A stretch of DNA of 58,256 bases, counting the filler, from Platydemus manokwari (Eukaryota), in the NCBI GenBank assembly GCA_037951405.1. It is 4 parts of 4 records of this genome, joined end to end, with 100 filler letters (N's around TTAATTAATTAA, not from the genome) between each part and the next. Parts side by side here need not be neighbours in the genome. Positions count along the whole stretch, not along the records: positions 25,260 to 37,555 come from JBBMOY010206672.1; 3 more parts are not named here. One strand, written 5' to 3'. A program made the position numbers and the translations under genes. Positions within the stretch are counted from its first letter, which is position 1, and each line of letters opens with the position of its first letter. Shown piece after piece: positions 4,640 to 51,110 of this stretch. The notes under the pieces were generated by a model, which saw nothing but the letters and a program-made list of their open reading frames with translations, was not told the origin of the DNA and ran no database searches.

Positions 4640-5540
4640 AAATAGAGGACCATAGATCTTTCTTAAGAATGAAAATGACACATGCGTGACACTCCAAGGC
4701 ACCTCGAATCCATCTGTAATAGCTAATACTTGTTGAAGTGCTTTATTTGTAATTTCGATTCTTACTGTCGTCCTCACGTGATTTTAGGTGTACTAAGAGC
4801 AAATGTTTTATTTGCTCTTGTTCCAAATCATATAGATCTTCCTTGTTTATAAAGTTACTTGATACGATAGATATTGTTAATCCAGAATGGATTATTGCAT
4901 CACTCTTTCTTTGATTTACTCTAATTTTTATTGTTTGAGTTTTTCCCTGAATCAATAATCGTATCATATGGACATGGGAACTGGGTAATCCTAATTGATT
5001 TCGCTTTTTTCTCTTTGAAATACATGATGAAATAAATTGTTGATAGTTGTTTGAGGGTTGATAGTACGAACAGTTCAACCATAGATAGTTCGTTTTCCTT
5101 AGAAAGAGTATTCGTTTTTATTAACGTTTTCGTTTTATATCAGTCTGGTATTTGGATATCAAGGACACAATATGTGACTGGGCCCATTTTTTGCTCTGAT
5201 TTAAAGTCGTTGTCATCTGTACCATCATCTTCCACTATAAATGAAGTACTGAATCTGGAATTTTTTTCTGTTTTGCATTTCTCTTTTCATATTTTCCATT
5301 TCTTGATATTGATGAATAATGAAGAAAACTTTTGAGAGAAATTACACGCTTCCGAGCAATAATTTCCATAAAACTGCTACTATATTGTACAGTGTATACT
5401 TAAATAATACCTGTCCTATTAGAACTTTTGTGAATATCATTATAACGTTAATTCCAATCAATTCGGCACAATTTGAATTTTCCCCAATTTTTCTTCATTT
5501 TATTTAACGTTGCTTTCTTGTCATTATCTGGATCAATGAA
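4640..5540 (-). mobile_element. Decayed LTR-retrotransposon gag/aspartic-protease fragment, same family as 43960-44431
   Basis: IKIRVNQRKSDAIIHSGLTISIVSSNF resembles the retropepsin ALIDSG motif with the catalytic D replaced by H. DNA is clearly shared with 43960-44431 in opposite orientation (e.g. GGATTACCCAGTTCCCAT, ACAAGAAAGCAACGTTAA). Confidence 0.6.
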
Positions 5541-9010: not shown

Positions 9011-9520
9011 GGGTTACAAAAATTCAAAATCGTTATACCTTCGTGAGATTTCATCTTCACTCAACAAATATCCCACGTGAAAAAATTGGAAGAGTTTATA
9101 AAGGTTCTTAAGAAACTTAGAACGAATTTTCATCCCATGGTAGGCCTTCGCAAAATGAAGAATTTACTTCTATTCAACGAGTTGATAGTAATAAAAATAA
9201 AACAAAGTCGGGATTGCAAAGCAAAGATCCTATTTACAATACTTCAATACATTAGGCTCTGTTAAAGAATCTGAAATTATAAAGTTCACTCTGCTAGAAC
9301 TCATTAGACTGAAAATAAAACAAATATTTCTGATATTACTACAATGAATATAGAATGTTCAATTACTAGTGAAAATATTGTTTCATATAAAAATTAAGAT
9401 ATTCAAAATTCAAATATTCTTAATGATTTTCTACTAAATAGTGTTTCACTTTGTTAAAAACATATTGAATGAGTAAATAAATTCGATGCATACATATAGA
9501 AAATTAGGCAAAAAGATTAT

Positions 9521-9806
9521 TTGCGATTTTGCGACAAATTAACGCCATCTTCAGTCAATGGGTTTCAATGAAAAGCTTGAAGTTTGAGTCCCACACGAAC
9601 TCATCCAAAAACAGAAGGATAAATGGCTTCCCATTGCTGCTCAAAATCTTACTCGACACCAAAGAACCCATGGACACAAGCGACGTTTCTTATACAAAAT
9701 CGTCACTGGAGACAAGAAATAGTGACTATGTGAATATGAAGCAAAGGAAAGAATGGGTGAGTCCTGGAGAGAAGCCTAAGTCCCGGATCAAGAAAGGCCT
9801 GCACAT
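9521..9806 (+). mobile_element. mariner transposase fragment
   Basis: RHLQSMGFNEKLEV*VPHEL matches the WVPHEL motif. It is followed by RHQRTHGHKRRFLYKIVTGD (first catalytic D) and, after a frameshift, YVNMKQRKEWVSPGEKPKSRIKKGLH. Confidence 0.9.
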
Positions 9807-11382
9807 AATTAGTAAACAATTAAGTATATACAGAGTAAATCACAAAGTAAAATATAGACACTCATGAAGAGTTTACCAATTACTTGTTTTTAATGTTTTA
9901 ATGGTTCGAGTTAATTTTTATAGTTTCGCAGATGAATAAGTTGTTTATAAATAATTGTTTTCGTTGAATAACATTTTCTAATAATTAATAAAATCAAGTC
10001 AATTCACAGATATGTGAGTTTGAGAGTAAATATAATTTACTATTTATTGACAAAAATCGACAGCATTTAACAATTATAAATGTATAAAAATAAGCATAAA
10101 AACATTTTGAAAAATATTTACTTACAATTGTAATATAAAGTGGTATTATTTTGATAATTAATTAAAATTAAAAATATTATAAAATTTAATCTAAAAGTAA
10201 TACCTGGATCTCAATAATCAGAGTAATCATCTTCGAAAGAAAGATCGTCGAATTCTCTCTTAGAAAAATCGTAAAATATTGAAGACCAAATTTTCATATT
10301 TCAAGCACTTTCACCAAATAATAAGTCTAATAAATGAAATCAGTATTAAAAAATAATTTTTCTTTAAGCAAAATGTTTACATTTTCAAATTGTTCATATA
10401 TAATTGAAATAAACAAATAGAAAATATGATGTATTATTGCAATGCAATATCTTAGTATTAAATTCATTTCAATTTACAGAAATTGATGATTTTTATAGTT
10501 GACTTATTGCACACATTTTCAGTTATTATAAATAACGTTTTTTTTTTGGATAAATTAGTCTTATAAATTAATCACATGACAAATTTTATGTGGAATCAGG
10601 GTTAAGATTATTGTTCAAAATTTTAATTATAGTTTCCTTTCAAAAGTTGACACCAACCAAAATAAAATAGCTACTTCTGGAGATCTCTTGGTGTATATTA
10701 AAGTCAATTGTATCATAAGAAAATCAAACTGTTAGTTTTTCGTATTTATAAATATGAATACTCCAACAGCATAAATTATAATATCATTATATTTACTATT
10801 AGGTAAGTACCGCGATTATAACTATTGTCCTATAACGCAATTACAACAAATTATATTTGCAAATGAGTCTAATCATTTCAGAGAGCAATATAATAATTTT
10901 TATTAATTATAAACTGTTTCAGTAATTTTTATTTTTACTTACTTTTATTTTATTTTCATATTAAAGTTATATTAATTAAATTAACTAGTGCAATAAAATC
11001 AAGATTCCCAGTCGAAATAAAAAAAAATTGCTGACATTTGAAATAATAACGACAGTTTGTGTTGGGTTCTTCATTCTGAATGAAGAAGCAATTACTGAAT
11101 CCAAAAATCGAAGTTTGTCAACTACCACAACATACCACAATATTACACCTAAAAGTTGATTTTCAACTACACGCCTGCTATACAGTAAGACTCAAAGCTC
11201 AATACAAAGCCTCAATGAACGCAGTCAAAATTTGGCTTCTATGTGGCAGTTCGCAATCTTTACCCAAGATCTGGGTGTAATTTTATTGACACGCTTGTAT
11301 CACACTTTGATTTTACTTTTCTCTGTTTCTATTGGGCTTATTGATTTGGTAAATCTCTATGTGTGTGTGTTGTTATTGTTTT

Positions 11383-11482
11383 NNNNNNNNNNNNNNNNNN
11401 NNNNNNNNNNNNNNNNNNNNNNNNNNTTAATTAATTAANNNNNNNNNNNNNNNNNNNNNNNNNNNNNNNNNNNNNNNNNNNN
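11383..11482. other. Artificial contig spacer
   Basis: 44 N, TTAATTAATTAA (stop codons in all six frames), 44 N; 100 nt in total. Confidence 0.97.
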
Positions 11483-13480: not shown

Positions 13481-14360
13481 CTATCGTTGATTATAGAGGC
13501 TAAAAATAACAAATTCGAATCTGATTTACAGTAGTTATTGTAAAAATATGATCACTGAACTGTAGAAACCATAAAGAAAAATTCATTATAATATAGGTGT
13601 ATAGAGGTTACTACAGATTTAACGGAATGTCTACCGGCGATTTATTCCAACTCAATCGCGATTTATCACCAATTTCACCAATTTAGAATCCTTTCACATT
13701 GGGTTTGATAAACATATTTTCATTCTAATCAAAAAAATTGTACAAATATTCGTTTATATTTCCTAGATTCTTTTAATTATCGACCGACAGTAAATGCAAT
13801 GTGATTAATATACCCTTGAAGTCATAAGCCAAAAATAGAACCAAAAATAGAAATTTCCTTACTAGCCAATCAGATATCTTGAAAATTACGTTTGCCGGTT
13901 GGATTCTCGTTATTGATTGATGTACAAACATAATGAGGAATGAAAAAACATTAATTGATCAGTCAAAAAATTTTTGTTTATACCTATAACTCTAACAACA
14001 AATGAAACTTTAAAATGTTTTGTACTTATAACATCAATTGACTCAACGAAATCGTGTACTCTTTTTGATCAATAAATTTGTGACTATTTCTGATTATCTG
14101 GAAAAGATGCTGAGCATTTAATTATTTGCTCTTTGAATTTTTAGCTAAAGGAATTTTGTGCGATAACAATATAGTTTTTACTGTTTTTATTATATTTAAC
14201 AATATCATTCGTGGGGTTCATCTAGAAAACAATAAATATATCATGATATGGTGTCTCCTTGTCGCAAGATTTAATTAATTAATTAAACTTTCATAAATTA
14301 GAAATGAATATTTTTACGCTTAGTGATTTATTTAATCATTATCTCACTTCATAAAATTAC

Positions 14361-15052
14361 CTGGCAATGTTATGCAGAGAGCCGATAAATATGCCATTTC
14401 ATAATCATCGATTGGTTCTACGAGTTCACGCTTGATAAATTCTGCTACATAAAAATAATTGATAAACAAAGGGCCAAGGGGATTTTTTGCCATAACATCT
14501 ATGGGAATCCTCCTTGTTAGTCTGAGATCGAAAAACTGATTTCGATCAAAATCCACAACCCTCAAATACCGGAAAGAAATGATGTCAAACAATGCCAACT
14601 TGATGACAATAATTGAATCAGAAAAAGGCAAAACTGTTTTGAAATCTGAAAATGATAAAATTTAAAATATTTCACCTCGGAAATGTGAATAAAATTAATG
14701 AAGGAAGATGAGTTTATTAATTTGTTGTGAATTTTTTCCTTTTTATTTTATTATATTTTTAATCTAATTTTCTAGTGAAGTTGGAAGGCTTTAATTTATC
14801 TTTGTAGTTTTATTAAGAATTATTGACAAGTGATAAATCATAAATAACAAAAGATCCACAATAATTTATTGTTTTTAATTAGAATTTGAATATTAATGGA
14901 TAAAAATTTTACATCAATTTTTGCACAGAATCTTTTAGTTGATAAAGTTCGTAATATCATGCAATTTGTTCCACTTTTTGGTGGAGGTTTAAAGTCATCA
15001 TTGTCTAAATATATGCCAAACATTAAAGAACCATTTGTGAATGAAAAATGAG
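14361..15052 (-). pseudogene. Nuclear receptor ligand-binding domain exons (helices 3-9), copy B
   Basis: Exon 15052-14913 ends TLSTKRFCAKID. Exon 14645-14361 reads DFKTVLPFSDSIIVIKLALFDIISFRY...PIDDYEMAYLSALCITLP, matching the LBD signature FAKxxxxFxxLxxxDQxxLLK and DDxExALLxAxxLxxPD. Splice phases of the two exons do not match and the next exon (PDEPHE*) stops early. Confidence 0.75.
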
Positions 15053-22782: not shown

Positions 22783-24765
22783 TTAATGATTTTTGTTTCT
22801 TTCAGAGTGGTAAATAATTTTTCTAGCACAGCTAAATTGACCCAATATTTAGACAACAACATGAAAAGCTCGAATGTTTATAATCCAGTAATCCAGAAGA
22901 CGAAACTTACTTTATTGGGATAGATTTGATTGGTTTGTCTTCTTCATCATTATTTCCATCATTGCAAAGAGAATTATTAGGAGATATATTCAGATCTATT
23001 TTTTCAATGGTTATAAACGATTTGTACTGAGGCAAACGTTCACATAGGTTATTCAGATCTGCTTCAGAAATGACTGGTAAAACTGGTCTCGTTGATTGAA
23101 GAAGAGGAGCACCAAGCTATATTTGATATAAAGGACAAAATACAAACAAAGCTCAAATATCATATTATAATGTGGAAATCAAATCAAATAACAAGTCACA
23201 AAAATGGTCACAGCTAAGAAATAAGTGATAGAGCAAGTAAATCGAATAAAGGTGATTTTTAATCCACGGGTTTGAATTTGAAGCCATGTCCGGTGTATGT
23301 GATCGAGATTATAAATGATGTAACCGGGATCGTCTAATTTCTAATTGGAAATTGTTACGTAATGAGTCGACCGATGTGTTAAAATATTAATTAATAATAA
23401 ATGAAAATAATCATATAAATCAATAATTGAGTATAATAATAGCTATACTGATTTATAATCCATATCAGATCGAAACAAAAGATTTTCACTCGAAATCGAA
23501 AAGAAATCGCTAAAATTTCTGCTATTAATAAGGAAATATTTTTCGGGGTTCTTCAATGTTTCTAAAACACCAGTAAATTATCGATTATTAAAATTCACTT
23601 CAATAAGACAATAAAAAAATCAATAAATAAAATTTTCCCAAACTTACTTTTGGTAATGAAAACGAATAAAGTGAATTGAAAAGACTCTGCACAAAATGGT
23701 TTTCTAAAAATTCCAAAAATAATAAACATCAAACACGTCACACTATTAACACCGCCACCTACCAAGATCCTGTTCCAATTGCATTCGTGCCTCATGATCT
23801 TTTCGTCGAATTTCCTGTGCCAATTTTGAACATTGGATTCCCCATTTGTACCAGAAATCGAGATAATGTTGTCGACGAGCAATTTCCGTTACACCTTTGG
23901 CATATACCAATGGTGCCGTTTGCATCTGATCAAGTACCCGTAATCCGGTGCGAACACGTTTCATTTTTTCCTTGACGAGAAACAATGAATCGTCGACTTC
24001 ACAGATTTTCGTTTGGAATTTCTGTAACCAGCTGAATTCAGAAAATCTATGAAATTTAAACTGGGAAAAATCTTTTCCACTTTTTCCTCGAATCAATATT
24101 TGTAGTGAGGTCAGTTTTGCTGCGTTCCACTTTGCTGAGATGTTCTCTCAACTGTGTATATTGTTTATTCACATTCTCTAATTGACTCCTGACACTGTCG
24201 CAATGGTCTATTAGAACCGTATATCCTCCAGAATCTCTGCATTGTCTATAAACCATTGATTTTTATTTATATATCTGCCCAAATCCAAACAATAATCACA
24301 CACCTTACAGTGTGTTCCATGTATTCTTTATGTGTTTGTATTAAAGATATCAATTTTTCACTCTGTTCACGAAGTCCTGTCAAATAATCCAAACGTTTTA
24401 GAAATTCTTTCGTACTGGTGTGTGTCTCTTTTTCCACAACCCGTTCGACTTCCTCGATATCTTCATCGACGATTGATTGCATCGGTTTACCCTGTTCGAT
24501 CAATGCTCGTCCGAGTTCAATATTTCTAACTTGAAATTAGAAAAACAATCGTTGATAATTTTCGATATTACTTGTATGCAGTTGCTACAAGACCCATTTT
24601 ACTCCATAGTTCTTTTAAATTATCGATCGATGATGGATTTTCTTCTGAAATGCCCAATAATTCATTATATGCTTCATGGGCCTCTAATATTAGAGACTGT
24701 ACTGTAACTTGTGGACGCGTTCGACTGTCTTGTGAAAGTACCCATTGAAGTAAGTTTCCTGGATG
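22783..24765 (-). CDS. RB1CC1: RB1CC1/FIP200 (Atg11/Atg17 family) autophagy scaffold, Atg17-like region; partial, multi-exon
   Basis: Exons splice in frame through GT-AG introns: NLLQWVLSQD..VQSLILEA; SKTDLTTNIDSRKNWLQ; LRVLDQMQTAPLVYAKGVTEIARRQHYLDFWYKW (compare human VKIVEALSTVPQMYCLAVVEVVRRKMFIKHYREW); NHFVQSLF; LPVISEADLNNL. The 5' exons are absent from this contig and the 3' end is uncertain. Confidence 0.85.
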
Positions 24766-24809
24766 CTAAAAATAAATTACGATAATATATTATAACTAGA
24801 TGATGATGA

Positions 24810-25135
24810 TCATTCCGTGTAGGATATTATTAAATAATTGCATTTTCGTATTTCTAATAATTTCTAATAGTTTTCACATCTTGGGTTACTAAATTTATAA
24901 TAAGCTCTAACATATCTTTTTTCCCATTGGTAATGATATTCCTCTTCGTATTCCTTGTTCACACATTGCATACATTGTTTGACCAGGAAATAATTATAAT
25001 TCAATATTTGTTTCTTTTATTCCTGGTTCCTATGTTAAAGATGGGGCAGAAACATAATTAGCTGGATCTAAATTTCTTTCATTAATATTAGGTTGTCCCA
25101 TATGAAATGTCCGATTTTTATATATTGAACTTTAA
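24810..25135 (-). mobile_element. Protein-primed family-B DNA polymerase fragment (Polinton/Maverick/adintovirus-like)
   Basis: LDPANYVSAPSLT*EPGIKETNIEL*LFPGQTMYAMCEQGIRRGIS...NNILHGM matches the consensus LDPAHYYTAPGLSW..TxxELELLTDxxMxxxxExGIRGGIS...DxNNLYGxAM. Contains stops. Confidence 0.8.
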
Positions 25136-25159: not shown

Positions 25160-25259
25160 NNNNNNNNNNNNNNNNNNNNNNNNNNNNNNNNNNNNNNNNN
25201 NNNTTAATTAATTAANNNNNNNNNNNNNNNNNNNNNNNNNNNNNNNNNNNNNNNNNNNN
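25160..25259. other. Artificial contig spacer
   Basis: 44 N, TTAATTAATTAA, 44 N. Confidence 0.97.
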
Positions 25260-37100: not shown

Positions 37101-37340
37101 GACTGACTTCTTTACCTAGTGACCCTTTGAATTTCATTATGATTATAATAACTATAGTAGAGGGGAAAAGACTATAATAACACACACCCCCCAAAAATAC
37201 ACCCCTTTTAAAAAAATTAAAAAAATAAAATAAAAAAATAAAATAAATAAAAAAATAAATAAAAAAATTAAAAAAAAGATAAAAAAAAACATTTTTGACA
37301 TACCCTTAAGTAATAACTTGGGACTATTAAAATTAAATAA

Positions 37341-37555
37341 ATGGATCCAAATAAAATCAGATATAATGTTTATACTAATGATGAATTATCAGTAATAGAT
37401 ATTAATATTCGTTTTCCTGATCAGAAAAATAAATTAGAATCTTCATGTGATCCTAGATTAGGAGCTAGTAATGTAGGTTTGTGTAATTTATATAATTTCA
37501 ATCATCTCAAATTTTATATTAAAAAAATGAACAGTTTTGACATAAATAAAAGGAT
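37341..37555 (+). pseudogene. Fragment resembling the N-terminus of the poxvirus RNA polymerase largest subunit (RPO147/RPB1-like)
   Basis: MDPNKIRYNVYTNDELSVIDINIRFPDQKNKLESSCDPRLGASNVGLC aligns by eye with vaccinia RPO147 as recalled ([49 protein letters not shown]). The ATG sits in TAAATG (37338-37343). Similarity ends near codon 48 and the frame runs into the gap. Confidence 0.55.
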
Positions 37556-37655
37556 NNNNNNNNNNNNNNNNNNNNNNNNNNNNNNNNNNNNNNNNNNNNT
37601 TAATTAATTAANNNNNNNNNNNNNNNNNNNNNNNNNNNNNNNNNNNNNNNNNNNN
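37556..37655. other. Artificial contig spacer
   Basis: 44 N, TTAATTAATTAA, 44 N. Confidence 0.97.
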
Positions 37656-43959: not shown

Positions 43960-44431
43960 GGTTCAAGATCATTACAAGAAAGCAACGTTAACTACAATGA
44001 CGAAAATTCATATTTTTAAAAATTCAGATTTAATACTTCATTAATAAAGAAAGATGGAGGTAGAGATGACAAAGATTTTATAAAAGATCAAGGAAGCGGG
44101 CACAACTACATACCGTGTCTTGATATTTAAATACCAAACAGCGACAAAACGGAAACAATTGAAAACAAGTAATCTTTTTAAGAAAAATAAACTATCCGTG
44201 ACTGAGCTGTTCACACCACCAACTTTTGAAAAGCTACTGCTAATATATAATATCATGCAATTAAAAGAGACGAAACTTATTTTGAAAGAAACAACAAAAC
44301 TCAAAAGAATAAGAAATATAAATTGGGATATTGAAAAACAAGTTTTATTAGGATTACCCAGTTCCCATATTTATATGATAAGATCATTGATTCGGGGAAA
44401 AACTCTGTCAGCAAAAATTAAAGTAAATTAG
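43960..44431 (+). mobile_element. Second, internally deleted copy of the retroelement fragment at 4915-5540
   Basis: LGLPSSHIYMIRSLIRGKTLSAKIKVN versus LGLPSSHVHMIRLLIQGKTQTIKIRVN, plus several collinear DNA blocks. Confidence 0.8.
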
Positions 44432-45497: not shown

Positions 45498-47049
45498 TCA
45501 ATGAAATAATTCTTGTTCAGCACTAAAATAACAATGAATTATATAAAATGCTAATTGATAGATTTCTTCGTTATCATGAAGCTGTAAATCTACTATACTG
45601 TCCAAACCATCACATTCTTCGATTTGATTACAAATGGTATCGTTTTCATCAAATGTATCATCAAGTAATTTTATTAAAGCTTTCAATACAACTTGTATGA
45701 TAACAACATTGTTGGTTGAAAGTAATTTACAGAATGGAGATATAATATTATTCATAATAAGATATTGTTTTTGTTCAGATGACCCGTAAACAATGAGATT
45801 ACACACCACCCAAGTTGCTTCCTCTTGACTTCGTACATCATCAACTTGTAGTTGTTGAATGACTAGTGGCAGAAATCCAAAATTTAGAACAGCTTGAATC
45901 TGTTTCTCATTGCCGACTGCTATATTGGATAAAATCCAAAGTGATTTCGTTCTTATTAACCTATTGGGATGATGTAATAAGGCGAAAAGCGAATCGAGAA
46001 ATTTAAGATCGAGAAGATGTTGACATTCGTCTATGGATCCTGTCGCTATGGTTCCAACTGCAGACAATGCTGATAATTGAATCTTTATATTTTTATGAGT
46101 TAAAAGTGATATTAGAAGCCTAGCAATGTCATGGTTGATTATCGTTTCAATATTATATTTATCAGATTCTAATAAATATTTTATTGAATTCAATGAATCA
46201 CAAAGCACTTCATTGTCAGTATGTTGAAGGAAATATCGTAAAATTGGCAGCAATTTTAAAACTGTCATGGAGTTCAGTGGATGATTTACATGTCGACATA
46301 TATTCGAAATAATCCACGAAACAATTTTCAAGTTGACCACTGAGTTGTCTGAGACGATCAAATTTAATATTAATAATAGAGCATTGGTTCCCATTATGTA
46401 ATCTCTGAATTCCGCACTATCACCAATAATATTACCCAAAATCAAAGTAGCTTGTTGACGTACTTGGAGATTTTTCGATTCTATTAATCCTAAAGTGGGT
46501 GAAATAACTCCACAGTGAACTACTTGACAAGTCTGTTCTACTGTGCCAGTTGTCAAATATGTTAATGATGTTATTGCTTCCAACTGAATGTTTGGATATC
46601 TAAACCAAATAAGAATTTAATAATAATTGATGGAATAATTAATAATTTTACCTTTCATCAGTTAGGCAATCTATAAGAATAGGAGCAATCCCAAATTGTA
46701 AAATCTGATCAATTAGTGCATCGGAATCTGATAACTTTTTACTCACAAATTGAACTGCTATAAATCGCATTTCGGGATCTGAGTTTTGAAGATAACCAAG
46801 CAAAGAATCTAAATCATTGAATTGAATTAAATCGTTATCAATTACTATATGTTCATTTGAAGAAATATTTCTTGCTTTATTCAATGTTTCTTCACGGTTA
46901 ATTTTTCGAAGTTGCACTTGATTATTTATTCGATTGACTCGCATTTCCTGAATGATGATTTCATTATAAACTTATGATATAATTAAATTATTAATTCTTA
47001 CCTCAGTGGTTTTTCCAGATTTTTTATGCTGTGATATTCTGCTAGACAT
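45498..47049 (-). CDS. KPNA: Importin subunit alpha (karyopherin alpha), divergent; 3 exons, 481 aa
   Basis: Exons 47049-47002, 46947-46652 and 46599-45498 are joined by 54- and 52-nt GT-AG introns into one open frame. IBB-like EMRVNRINNQVQLRKINREETLNKARNI, ARM repeats (LGNIIGDS, WIISNICR, WILSNIAVGN, WVVCNL) and the C-terminal IEECDGLDSIVDLQLHDNEEIYQLAFYII. Confidence 0.95.
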
Positions 47050-50099: not shown

Positions 50100-51110
50100 A
50101 TTGAGTATCTCTATATAATATTTTGGTGGTCTCCGGTCTGGTATTGTGATTTATTGATTGGCCACTTTATATAGTGGTTACTTTCAGCGAGCTGTGGCAA
50201 TGATCTTTCTTTTAATAACACGTGATTTTTATATCCAATTTTAATGCGATTGCAAATTCTCAGGTACATTCAAGAGTTTTGACGATAATGATTTCCACAT
50301 CTTCACATTTGACCAAGTAGCCCGTTTTCCATGATTATCGGTATAATAGGGTCTTGGTGGTGAGCCCGATAGCCAATCGGTTTCTATTTTTTCAATTCTA
50401 CAATTGTTGGGCAATGTTTCATTATACATCTCTATTAACTGTAGTCGTAAGCTGTGATAAAAGTAATCTATCTTATTATTTAAATATGTTGATAGTTTCT
50501 TGTTATGCTTGTGAAGAGAGATGGTTTTTTTACTGAGTTGTAAGCCCTTATAGGTGGTACAAGAGAACCCTATATTTGTATCTAGATGTCTCTTTTATAA
50601 TTCATATAGCGTCACCTTTGTGAGTACCCATTAGTACTGTAGGAATAACTTTTTCACAAATTACTTCTTCTAATGTCCCAAGTAACTGATTCTATATCAA
50701 TTTGTATTAGATGTTAGGTTTGTTTTCCAATGCTATCCCATTAATAGGATTAAAACTTTATTGATTTAGTAAAAAGGCACCACAGTGACTTTCATCTACT
50801 TGGCAGCTGAAAAGCATCGAACTGCACTTTGGATAGTATGTTATCTTCCCTGAATTTATGTCGAAAGTGTTCGTATATTGAGTTAGTTTGAATGTGTAGT
50901 TATCTGTGTCTACAATCTGGGGCTCTTCCGATGTACGTTACATCCGTCTTTATTCGTCCACCACGAGTTATAATTTCAGTGAGTCTTTTTCCAACTTTGG
51001 GAATCAGGGTGATTTCACTATCCACTCTCAATTTTCCTTGAACAAATGCAACATCACAAGCTTAGTGAGATATTTTTACATTGCCCCGTATAAGTTTGAT
51101 ATCTAGAAGA
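50100..51110 (-). mobile_element. Degenerate retroelement protease/integrase remnant
   Basis: LRVDSEITLIP..IITRGGRIKT is protease-like and DWLSGSPPRPYYTDNHG resembles integrase GxPxxIxTDNG. Confidence 0.35.

Follow-up and report, generated by a model that had tools for sequence, protein, structure and literature searches.

An RPO147 gene start from an undescribed poxvirus lineage, probably an integrated fossil beside decayed retroelements in an invertebrate genome

Results and Discussion

The window examined here, that is, the whole stretch of 58,256 nucleotides of DNA that was analysed, carries on its plus strand a short coding sequence that is best explained as the first 58 codons of RPO147 from a deep, undescribed poxvirus lineage. 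It is likely a non-functional fossil, inserted in an invertebrate genome into an A-rich tract next to the decayed remains of retroelements. We assign this complete reading a probability of roughly 0.6, and its parts differ in firmness. Judging from sequence comparisons, the fragment is almost certainly the 5' end of an RPO147 gene that belongs to a poxvirus lineage not yet described. Integration into host DNA, with the route through retroelement capture included, is probable, the junctions being known from one contig. The fragment itself likely has no function.

An artificial spacer composed of 44 N, a 12-base word with stops in all frames, and another 44 N occurs three times in the window (11383-11482, 25160-25259, and 37556..37655), and the window therefore represents four unlinked contigs. 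The feature occupies the final 218 bases of contig C (25260-37555). A reading made earlier from the sequence alone (hereafter, the sequence-only reading) had extended the feature over 37338..37555; this extent does not hold as a biological boundary, since 37555 is the contig end and the DNA to the right of the spacer belongs to a different, unlinked contig. An ATG at 37341 opens a frame that runs through 71 codons to the N gap with no stop, and its reported position, within TAAATG (37338-37343) and after an A-rich tract, was borne out (8% GC at 37201-37300).

Identity of the fragment

Codons 1-50, counted from 37341 (+), showed 96% identity over 49 aa to P0001, a 353-aa ENA protein encoded on a 1444-bp contig, which was also the one match among the two candidates when longer proteins were searched with the fragment. 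P0001 aligned with vaccinia Rpo147 across residues 4-346 (E 6.9e-27), compared with E values of 5e-6, 2e-4, and 0.07 for the cellular subunits Rpb1, Rpa1, and Rpc1, respectively. When the window was searched with a profile built from 35 chordopoxvirus RPO147 proteins, with the window and P0001 left out of the build, the fragment stood at the top of 1708 six-frame segments (16.4 bits, E 1e-4), followed by a runner-up at 2.2 bits (E 2.1). Likewise, N-terminal profiles for separate classes gave the fragment 29.0 bits for chordopox-plus-fish (20 sequences), 11.8 for non-pox (99 sequences), and 5.5 for entomopox-type proteins (2 sequences). Shuffled controls reached at most 6.8 bits with the chordopox-plus-fish profile (972 of 1000 shuffles reported) and at most 7.2 with the class profiles; the likeness of the fragment to poxvirus RPO147 exceeds chance. 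Searched alone, the fragment had no match among PDB sequences at E<=10, matched no RNA-polymerase family in Pfam, and gave no usable match in Atlas; it is identified through P0001 and the profiles. Two short hits were taken as chance, namely the sole match in viral_contigs (L001; 17 aa, antisense to a phage-like gene) and the sole match of the fragment in metagenome_contigs (L153; 16 aa).

The alignment of the fragment to chordopox RPO147 is colinear, with one single-residue gap near the start over 57 fragment residues, whereas alignments to Rpb1 require several gaps; the N-terminus of the fragment is compact and lacks the Rpb1 insertions. The earlier judgement that this spacing is closer to RPO147 than to cellular RPB1 is thus upheld by colinearity and by the E values of 6.9e-27 and 5e-6 given above. 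The sequence-only reading had named best matches to cellular RPA1, RPB1, or RPC1, or no matches at all, as the outcome that would overturn a poxvirus-like RNA polymerase; instead, vaccinia Rpo147 ranked ahead, and the matches of P0001, the profiles, and the trees favour a poxvirus over the cellular RPB1, RPA1, and RPC1. The codon spacing motif was found with the spacing that had been described for it, but relatedness reaches codon 58 (37514) and does not stop near codon 48. The region of the NADFDGD catalytic motif is absent, as the fragment (58 codons) and P0001 (353 aa) both end before it in a protein whose full length we take to be about 1290 aa.

Another earlier argument, that the TAAATG around the start codon (37338..37343, +) marks a poxvirus late promoter, had to be given up. 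This word occurs 51 times on the plus strand and 36 times on the minus strand of the window, for an expectation of 42 per strand, and it was found at 0 of 35 chordopox RPO147 starts, 23 of which have AAAATG. Because the TAAAT(G) initiator is neither above background nor typical of RPO147, it is not evidence for a poxvirus here; the word is present and not diagnostic.

Fragment anatomy and junctions

The best-preserved part, codons 1-50 (37341..37490, +), covers the N-terminal clamp region of RPO147 as far as the first of the zinc-ligand cysteines, and 48 of its 50 residues are those of P0001. It is followed by codons 51-58 (37491..37514, +), which are related to P0001 and heavily altered, with differences at 5 of 8 residues. 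These codons require a minimum of 5 base differences from P0001, one per changed residue, against 14.6 expected, and none of 100,000 random host stretches was as low, for a stretch of codons that was chosen post hoc. While the zinc site CxxC...CxGH is complete in P0001, the window copy retains the first cysteine only; two zinc-ligand positions are lost in codons 51-58, as expected of a broken fragment. Beyond this point, a tail unrelated to RPO147 (37515..37555, +) starts with an A7 run and reaches the contig end. Codons 59-71 would need at least 24 base differences from P0001, compared with 21.7 expected, and the best ungapped match of the tail to P0001 in six frames was no better than those of shuffles (277 of 300 as good). 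Homology stops at ~37514, 41 bases before the contig end, and the viral piece measures 174 bases. The fragment therefore bears marks of decay or truncation, in that homology ends inside the contig and 5 of the 8 codons just before this end are altered. Its coding sequence is AT-rich, with G or C at 6 of 58 third codon positions.

On the left side, an A-rich low-complexity tract (37190..37290, +) lies between the retroelement remains and the fragment. Read on the minus strand, it comprises a T-tract, then a purine run, and then TG, an arrangement that resembles a polypurine tract by eye only. An imperfect direct repeat of 22 nt brackets the fragment, its left copy (37281..37302, +) being identical to the right copy (37523..37544, +) at 19 of 22 positions, with a 10-nt core that occurs window-wide only at these two sites. 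The repeat was noticed after the fact and is only marginally beyond chance, its score being equalled by 98/1500 and 78/1500 shuffles and by 24/907 host stretches (p ~0.03-0.07). We regard it as a candidate target-site duplication, which suggests insertion. A 24-nt repeat (25781 vs. 37505) was judged by eye to be chance, and a hydrophobic minus-strand open reading frame (ORF) over the A-tract was discarded as a low-complexity artefact.

A tblastn search with 544 ORFs from 38 pox loci placed all 14 of its matches (E<=0.01) on the fragment, and the tested poxvirus neighbour genes had no match elsewhere in the window, which argues against a viral contig and not against a viral origin. Moreover, the DNA upstream of the fragment differs from the divergent neighbour gene of chordopox loci.

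Genomic context

Most of contig C is made up of scrambled, decayed remains of LTR retroelements (26428..37165, -), with a GC content of 36% against ~27% in the other contigs. The fragment is situated upstream of a 5'-truncated gag-like remnant and on the opposite strand; this remnant carries a gag-like zinc knuckle (36893-37030, -; zf-CCHC E 0.026). Further along the minus strand, we identified pieces of a Monjiviricetes-type fusion glycoprotein (31060-32092, -; PF24664 E 4.6e-14 and 1.6e-3), pieces that by eye look protease- and RT-like (30431-31249, -), and an RNase H end (30058-30444, -; RT_RNaseH E 0.017). At the end of the remains, a 415-aa exonuclease-like ORF (26428-27675, -) has the look of a DEDDh/DEDDy enzyme by eye and had neither a Pfam nor a PDB match. 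LTR elements with captured DEDDy exonucleases are known from bdelloid rotifers (PMC5408684). The glycoprotein lies upstream of the protease/RT pieces, an arrangement that is unusual and may be the result of nesting or rearrangement. A 33-nt unit occurs in four copies about 66 bases apart near the left end of contig C (25944-26228), possibly as part of an LTR or of an untranslated region. No LTR pair and no host gene were found in contig C, the rest of which is retroelement debris.

Because contig C has no host gene, its membership in the host genome is derived only from the assembly and from a single weak match of its left end to contig D (tblastx E 1e-3). For recognising the host, the most useful marker that the window offers is a divergent importin alpha-3-like gene of contig D, with introns of 54 and 52 nt (45498-47049, -). 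The importin alpha-3 type is specific to animals, and the host is an AT-rich animal with ~27% GC; a nematode, flatworm, mite, or myxozoan would each be consistent with this. Contig D also bears a second Monjiviricetes-type glycoprotein relic, recognised by a Pfam match (50241-50594, -), so that the same type of relic is paired there with the importin alpha-3-like gene; this provides supporting context for a host origin.

Placement of the lineage

In BLAST comparisons, P0001 scored 94-118 bits with each of the 19 chordopox proteins and no more than 55 bits with the other 97 candidates; salmon gill poxvirus gave 116 bits and the entomopoxvirus of Diachasmimorpha longicaudata (DlEPV) 51 bits. An exhaustive search of 1.84 billion protein representatives returned 42 matches at E<=0.001, headed by P0001 itself, salmon gill poxvirus (99 bits), and a chordopoxvirus (92 bits), the remainder scoring no higher than 66 bits. 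No close relative was present among these representatives, the best being salmon gill poxvirus with 29% identity, and none was recovered from viral_contigs or, by word search, from the longer proteins, nor did the alignment recover one from metagenome_contigs.

Trees were computed for P0001, whose N-terminal 353 aa have a long branch and a biased composition, against a sampling with one named entomopoxvirus, no alpha, beta, or gamma entomopoxviruses, and no named egovirus. In both finished trees, P0001 fell within the pox clade (support 100/100 and 100/99), outside the vertebrate-plus-fish poxvirus clade (99/94 and 100/98), and outside the entomopox-type rows (99/95 and 98/93). Support for its position as sister to the vertebrate clade was high with 19 rows in the tree (98/94) and low with 26 (89/58), and a preliminary quick tree had placed it as sister to chordopox at 84. 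The AU test rejected neither the grouping of P0001 with the entomopox-type rows (p 0.056) nor that with the fish virus (p 0.052). A deep third poxvirus lineage is the best reading of these sequence-based placements, which do not settle the matter.

The AlphaFold model of P0001 had a mean pLDDT of 49 and was built on a chordopox alignment. In a fold search with this low-confidence model, the Melanoplus entomopoxvirus ranked below vertebrate and fish poxviruses, and African swine fever virus came fourth; since the model is poor and was built on a chordopox alignment, this ranking is a weak check. P0001 lacks 7 of ~28 near-invariant residues (44 columns were listed, 16 of which were dropped as past the P0001 end) and a region-C arginine present in each of the five comparison rows. 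As DlEPV, a real entomopoxvirus, likewise lacks 7 of 28, this loss was not used as proof of decay in P0001. P0001 is a longer, single-member record of the same poxvirus lineage as the fragment, whose only close relative it is among the 1.84 billion representatives, and it may itself be a fossil. Other metagenomic sequences recovered, L190 and L184 (IMG/VR contigs of 92 and 62 kb) and P0051, supply RNA polymerase subunits of 1294 and 1369 aa that group with the wasp entomopoxvirus DlEPV; they are probably undescribed viruses of entomopox type.

Origin of the fragment

Two junctions within one contig, with the retroelement remains and A-tract on the left and the loss of homology at 37515 on the right, indicate that the contig is not plain viral DNA, and integration is the probable explanation. 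In such an event, infection of germ-line cells would have supplied a short 5' piece of the viral gene, with ~38 bases of leader and 58 codons, either as DNA or as a reverse-transcribed transcript. The piece would then have entered the A-rich tract at a staggered break, and joining of this type would duplicate ~15-22 bases of target on either side. Given integration, reverse transcription by a host retroelement has slightly better than even odds, favoured by the A-richness of the target, a run of A at the 3' end, and the repeat on both sides. Against this route, products of primed reverse transcription are usually complete at the 3' end and truncated at the 5' end, the reverse of the fragment. 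End-joining repair of viral DNA, which we place a little short of even odds, agrees with the truncated 3' side and with the cluster of changes seen at the junction. By either route, the fragment would yield no working enzyme and small RNAs at most. Some observations speak against a fossil: the right junction is only 41 bases short of the contig end, a place prone to assembly errors; the rate of differences climbs from 2 in 150 bases to 5 in 24 and then to nothing alignable, which also fits a poor read tail; and codons 1-50, with no stop and two changes from P0001, display little decay.

The same observations feed the leading rival, in which a live undescribed poxvirus in the sample, or its low-level reads, was mis-joined by the assembler, by way of the A-rich tract, to a contig of host repeats, and the tail is read error. 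The fragment does adjoin low-complexity DNA at a contig end, its first 50 codons are open and nearly the same as in P0001, the differences increase toward the end, and contig C is a mosaic of repeat pieces of the type prone to assembler mis-joins. However, the ungapped six-frame comparison found the tail unlike RPO147, a direct repeat brackets the fragment, the upstream DNA differs from the divergent neighbour gene of chordopox loci, and none of the other tested pox genes lies in the window. We hold a mis-join to be unlikely, at around one chance in five. Capture within an LTR retroelement, with the fragment moved along with the element, is less probable still. It would put the fragment in the 3' untranslated region, antisense and just upstream of a polypurine tract, in keeping with the T-tract, purine run, and TG that follow the fragment on the minus strand (by eye) and with the other acquired genes of the element, i.e., the Monjiviricetes-type glycoprotein and the exonuclease-like ORF. 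Against it, there is no LTR pair, the gag-like frame begins within ~40 bases of the purine run, too soon for an LTR, and the window holds no second fragment copy. The suggestion in the sequence-only reading that the adjacent retroelement had captured the fragment is accordingly weak, given the missing LTR pair and the opposite strand of the fragment.

We consider it very improbable that the fragment derives from another large DNA virus (an egovirus or asfuvirus) or from a divergent cellular RNA polymerase. The long branch and biased composition of P0001, the trees without a named egovirus, and the fourth rank of African swine fever virus in the fold search leave some room for such an origin, but P0001 lies inside the pox clade at 100/99, it scores about twice as many bits against vertebrate and fish poxviruses as against anything else, and the 1.84 billion representatives yielded nothing above salmon gill poxvirus. 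An integrated poxvirus fossil is the likeliest reading.

Comparison with known poxviruses and significance

Among known systems, RPO147 of the Chordopoxvirinae (salmon gill poxvirus, vaccinia) is the closest, sharing the compact colinear N-terminus and the same motif spacing, and it was the best match in every search that yielded a named relative. In contrast to its members, P0001 lies outside the chordopox clade and is 24-29% identical to them, compared with 40% between salmon gill poxvirus and other chordopoxviruses over the same region, and the window copy is a fragment of 58 codons. The RPO147 proteins of the Entomopoxvirinae (DlEPV, L190, P0051) resemble our lineage in family, invertebrate host, and AT-rich coding, but they match P0001 more weakly (51 and 37 bits vs. 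94-118) and form a separate clade in the tree (98/93), although the AU test leaves a grouping with P0001 unrejected (p 0.056). Known poxviruses comprise vertebrate and insect subfamilies, with fish poxviruses as a deeply branching lineage within chordopoxviruses (PMC13532606, PMC8121191).

Endogenous viral elements (EVEs) of Poxviridae in ants and wasps are likewise short poxvirus gene fragments in invertebrate assemblies, one of them RPO147. One study counts 28 Poxviridae endogenization events in Hymenoptera, 18 of them entomopox-like (PMC10259472), and another describes three EVEs in ants, one of which, a portion of RPO147 from Linepithema humile, did not cluster with the entomopoxviruses known (PMC6540820). 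The elements described there belong to Hymenoptera and are mostly entomopox-like, whereas our fragment is nearest to vertebrate and fish poxviruses. The earlier remark that integration would be uncommon for a cytoplasmic virus was therefore overstated. Poxvirus fossils are already known, RPO147 included, and the lineage is the new part. A preprint presents egoviruses as the sister order of poxviruses and reports one poxvirus in a survey of 85,123 metagenome assemblies, so that, on that account, such traces are rare (bioRxiv 10.1101/2024.03.23.586382). No account of the lineage of P0001 and the fragment was found in the literature covered, whose scope excluded supplements (ant EVE sequences, egovirus tables) and most subscription journals.

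That an RPO147 can be 24-29% identical to known poxviruses and yet belong with them is a sign that diversity near the root of the family is still unsampled. If integration holds, the host of the assembly would be a host of this lineage, information beyond the reach of a metagenomic contig. A bolder proposal, which we regard as doubtful, at about one chance in four, is that a third major poxvirus lineage, branching as the sister group of vertebrate poxviruses as a whole (fish poxviruses among them), infects the germ line of a non-insect invertebrate and has left its first traces in the fragment and P0001; if true, the host would mark where vertebrate poxviruses originated.

Other features of the window

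An Rfam search of the window found nothing, and none of nine ORFs from the window had an exact counterpart in the protein collection. Exons of a divergent ATG17/RB1CC1-like autophagy gene were observed at 23595-25000 (-), with a PF04108 match at E 2.7e-4, and an exon at 14344-14661 (-) has by eye the look of a nuclear-receptor ligand-binding domain, without a Pfam match. Two ORF fragments on different contigs, at 4743-5117 (-) and 44084-44431 (+), are related as judged by eye and probably represent another repeat family. Finally, a short stretch at 9508-9867 (+), likewise without a Pfam match, resembles what we take to be a mariner transposase motif.
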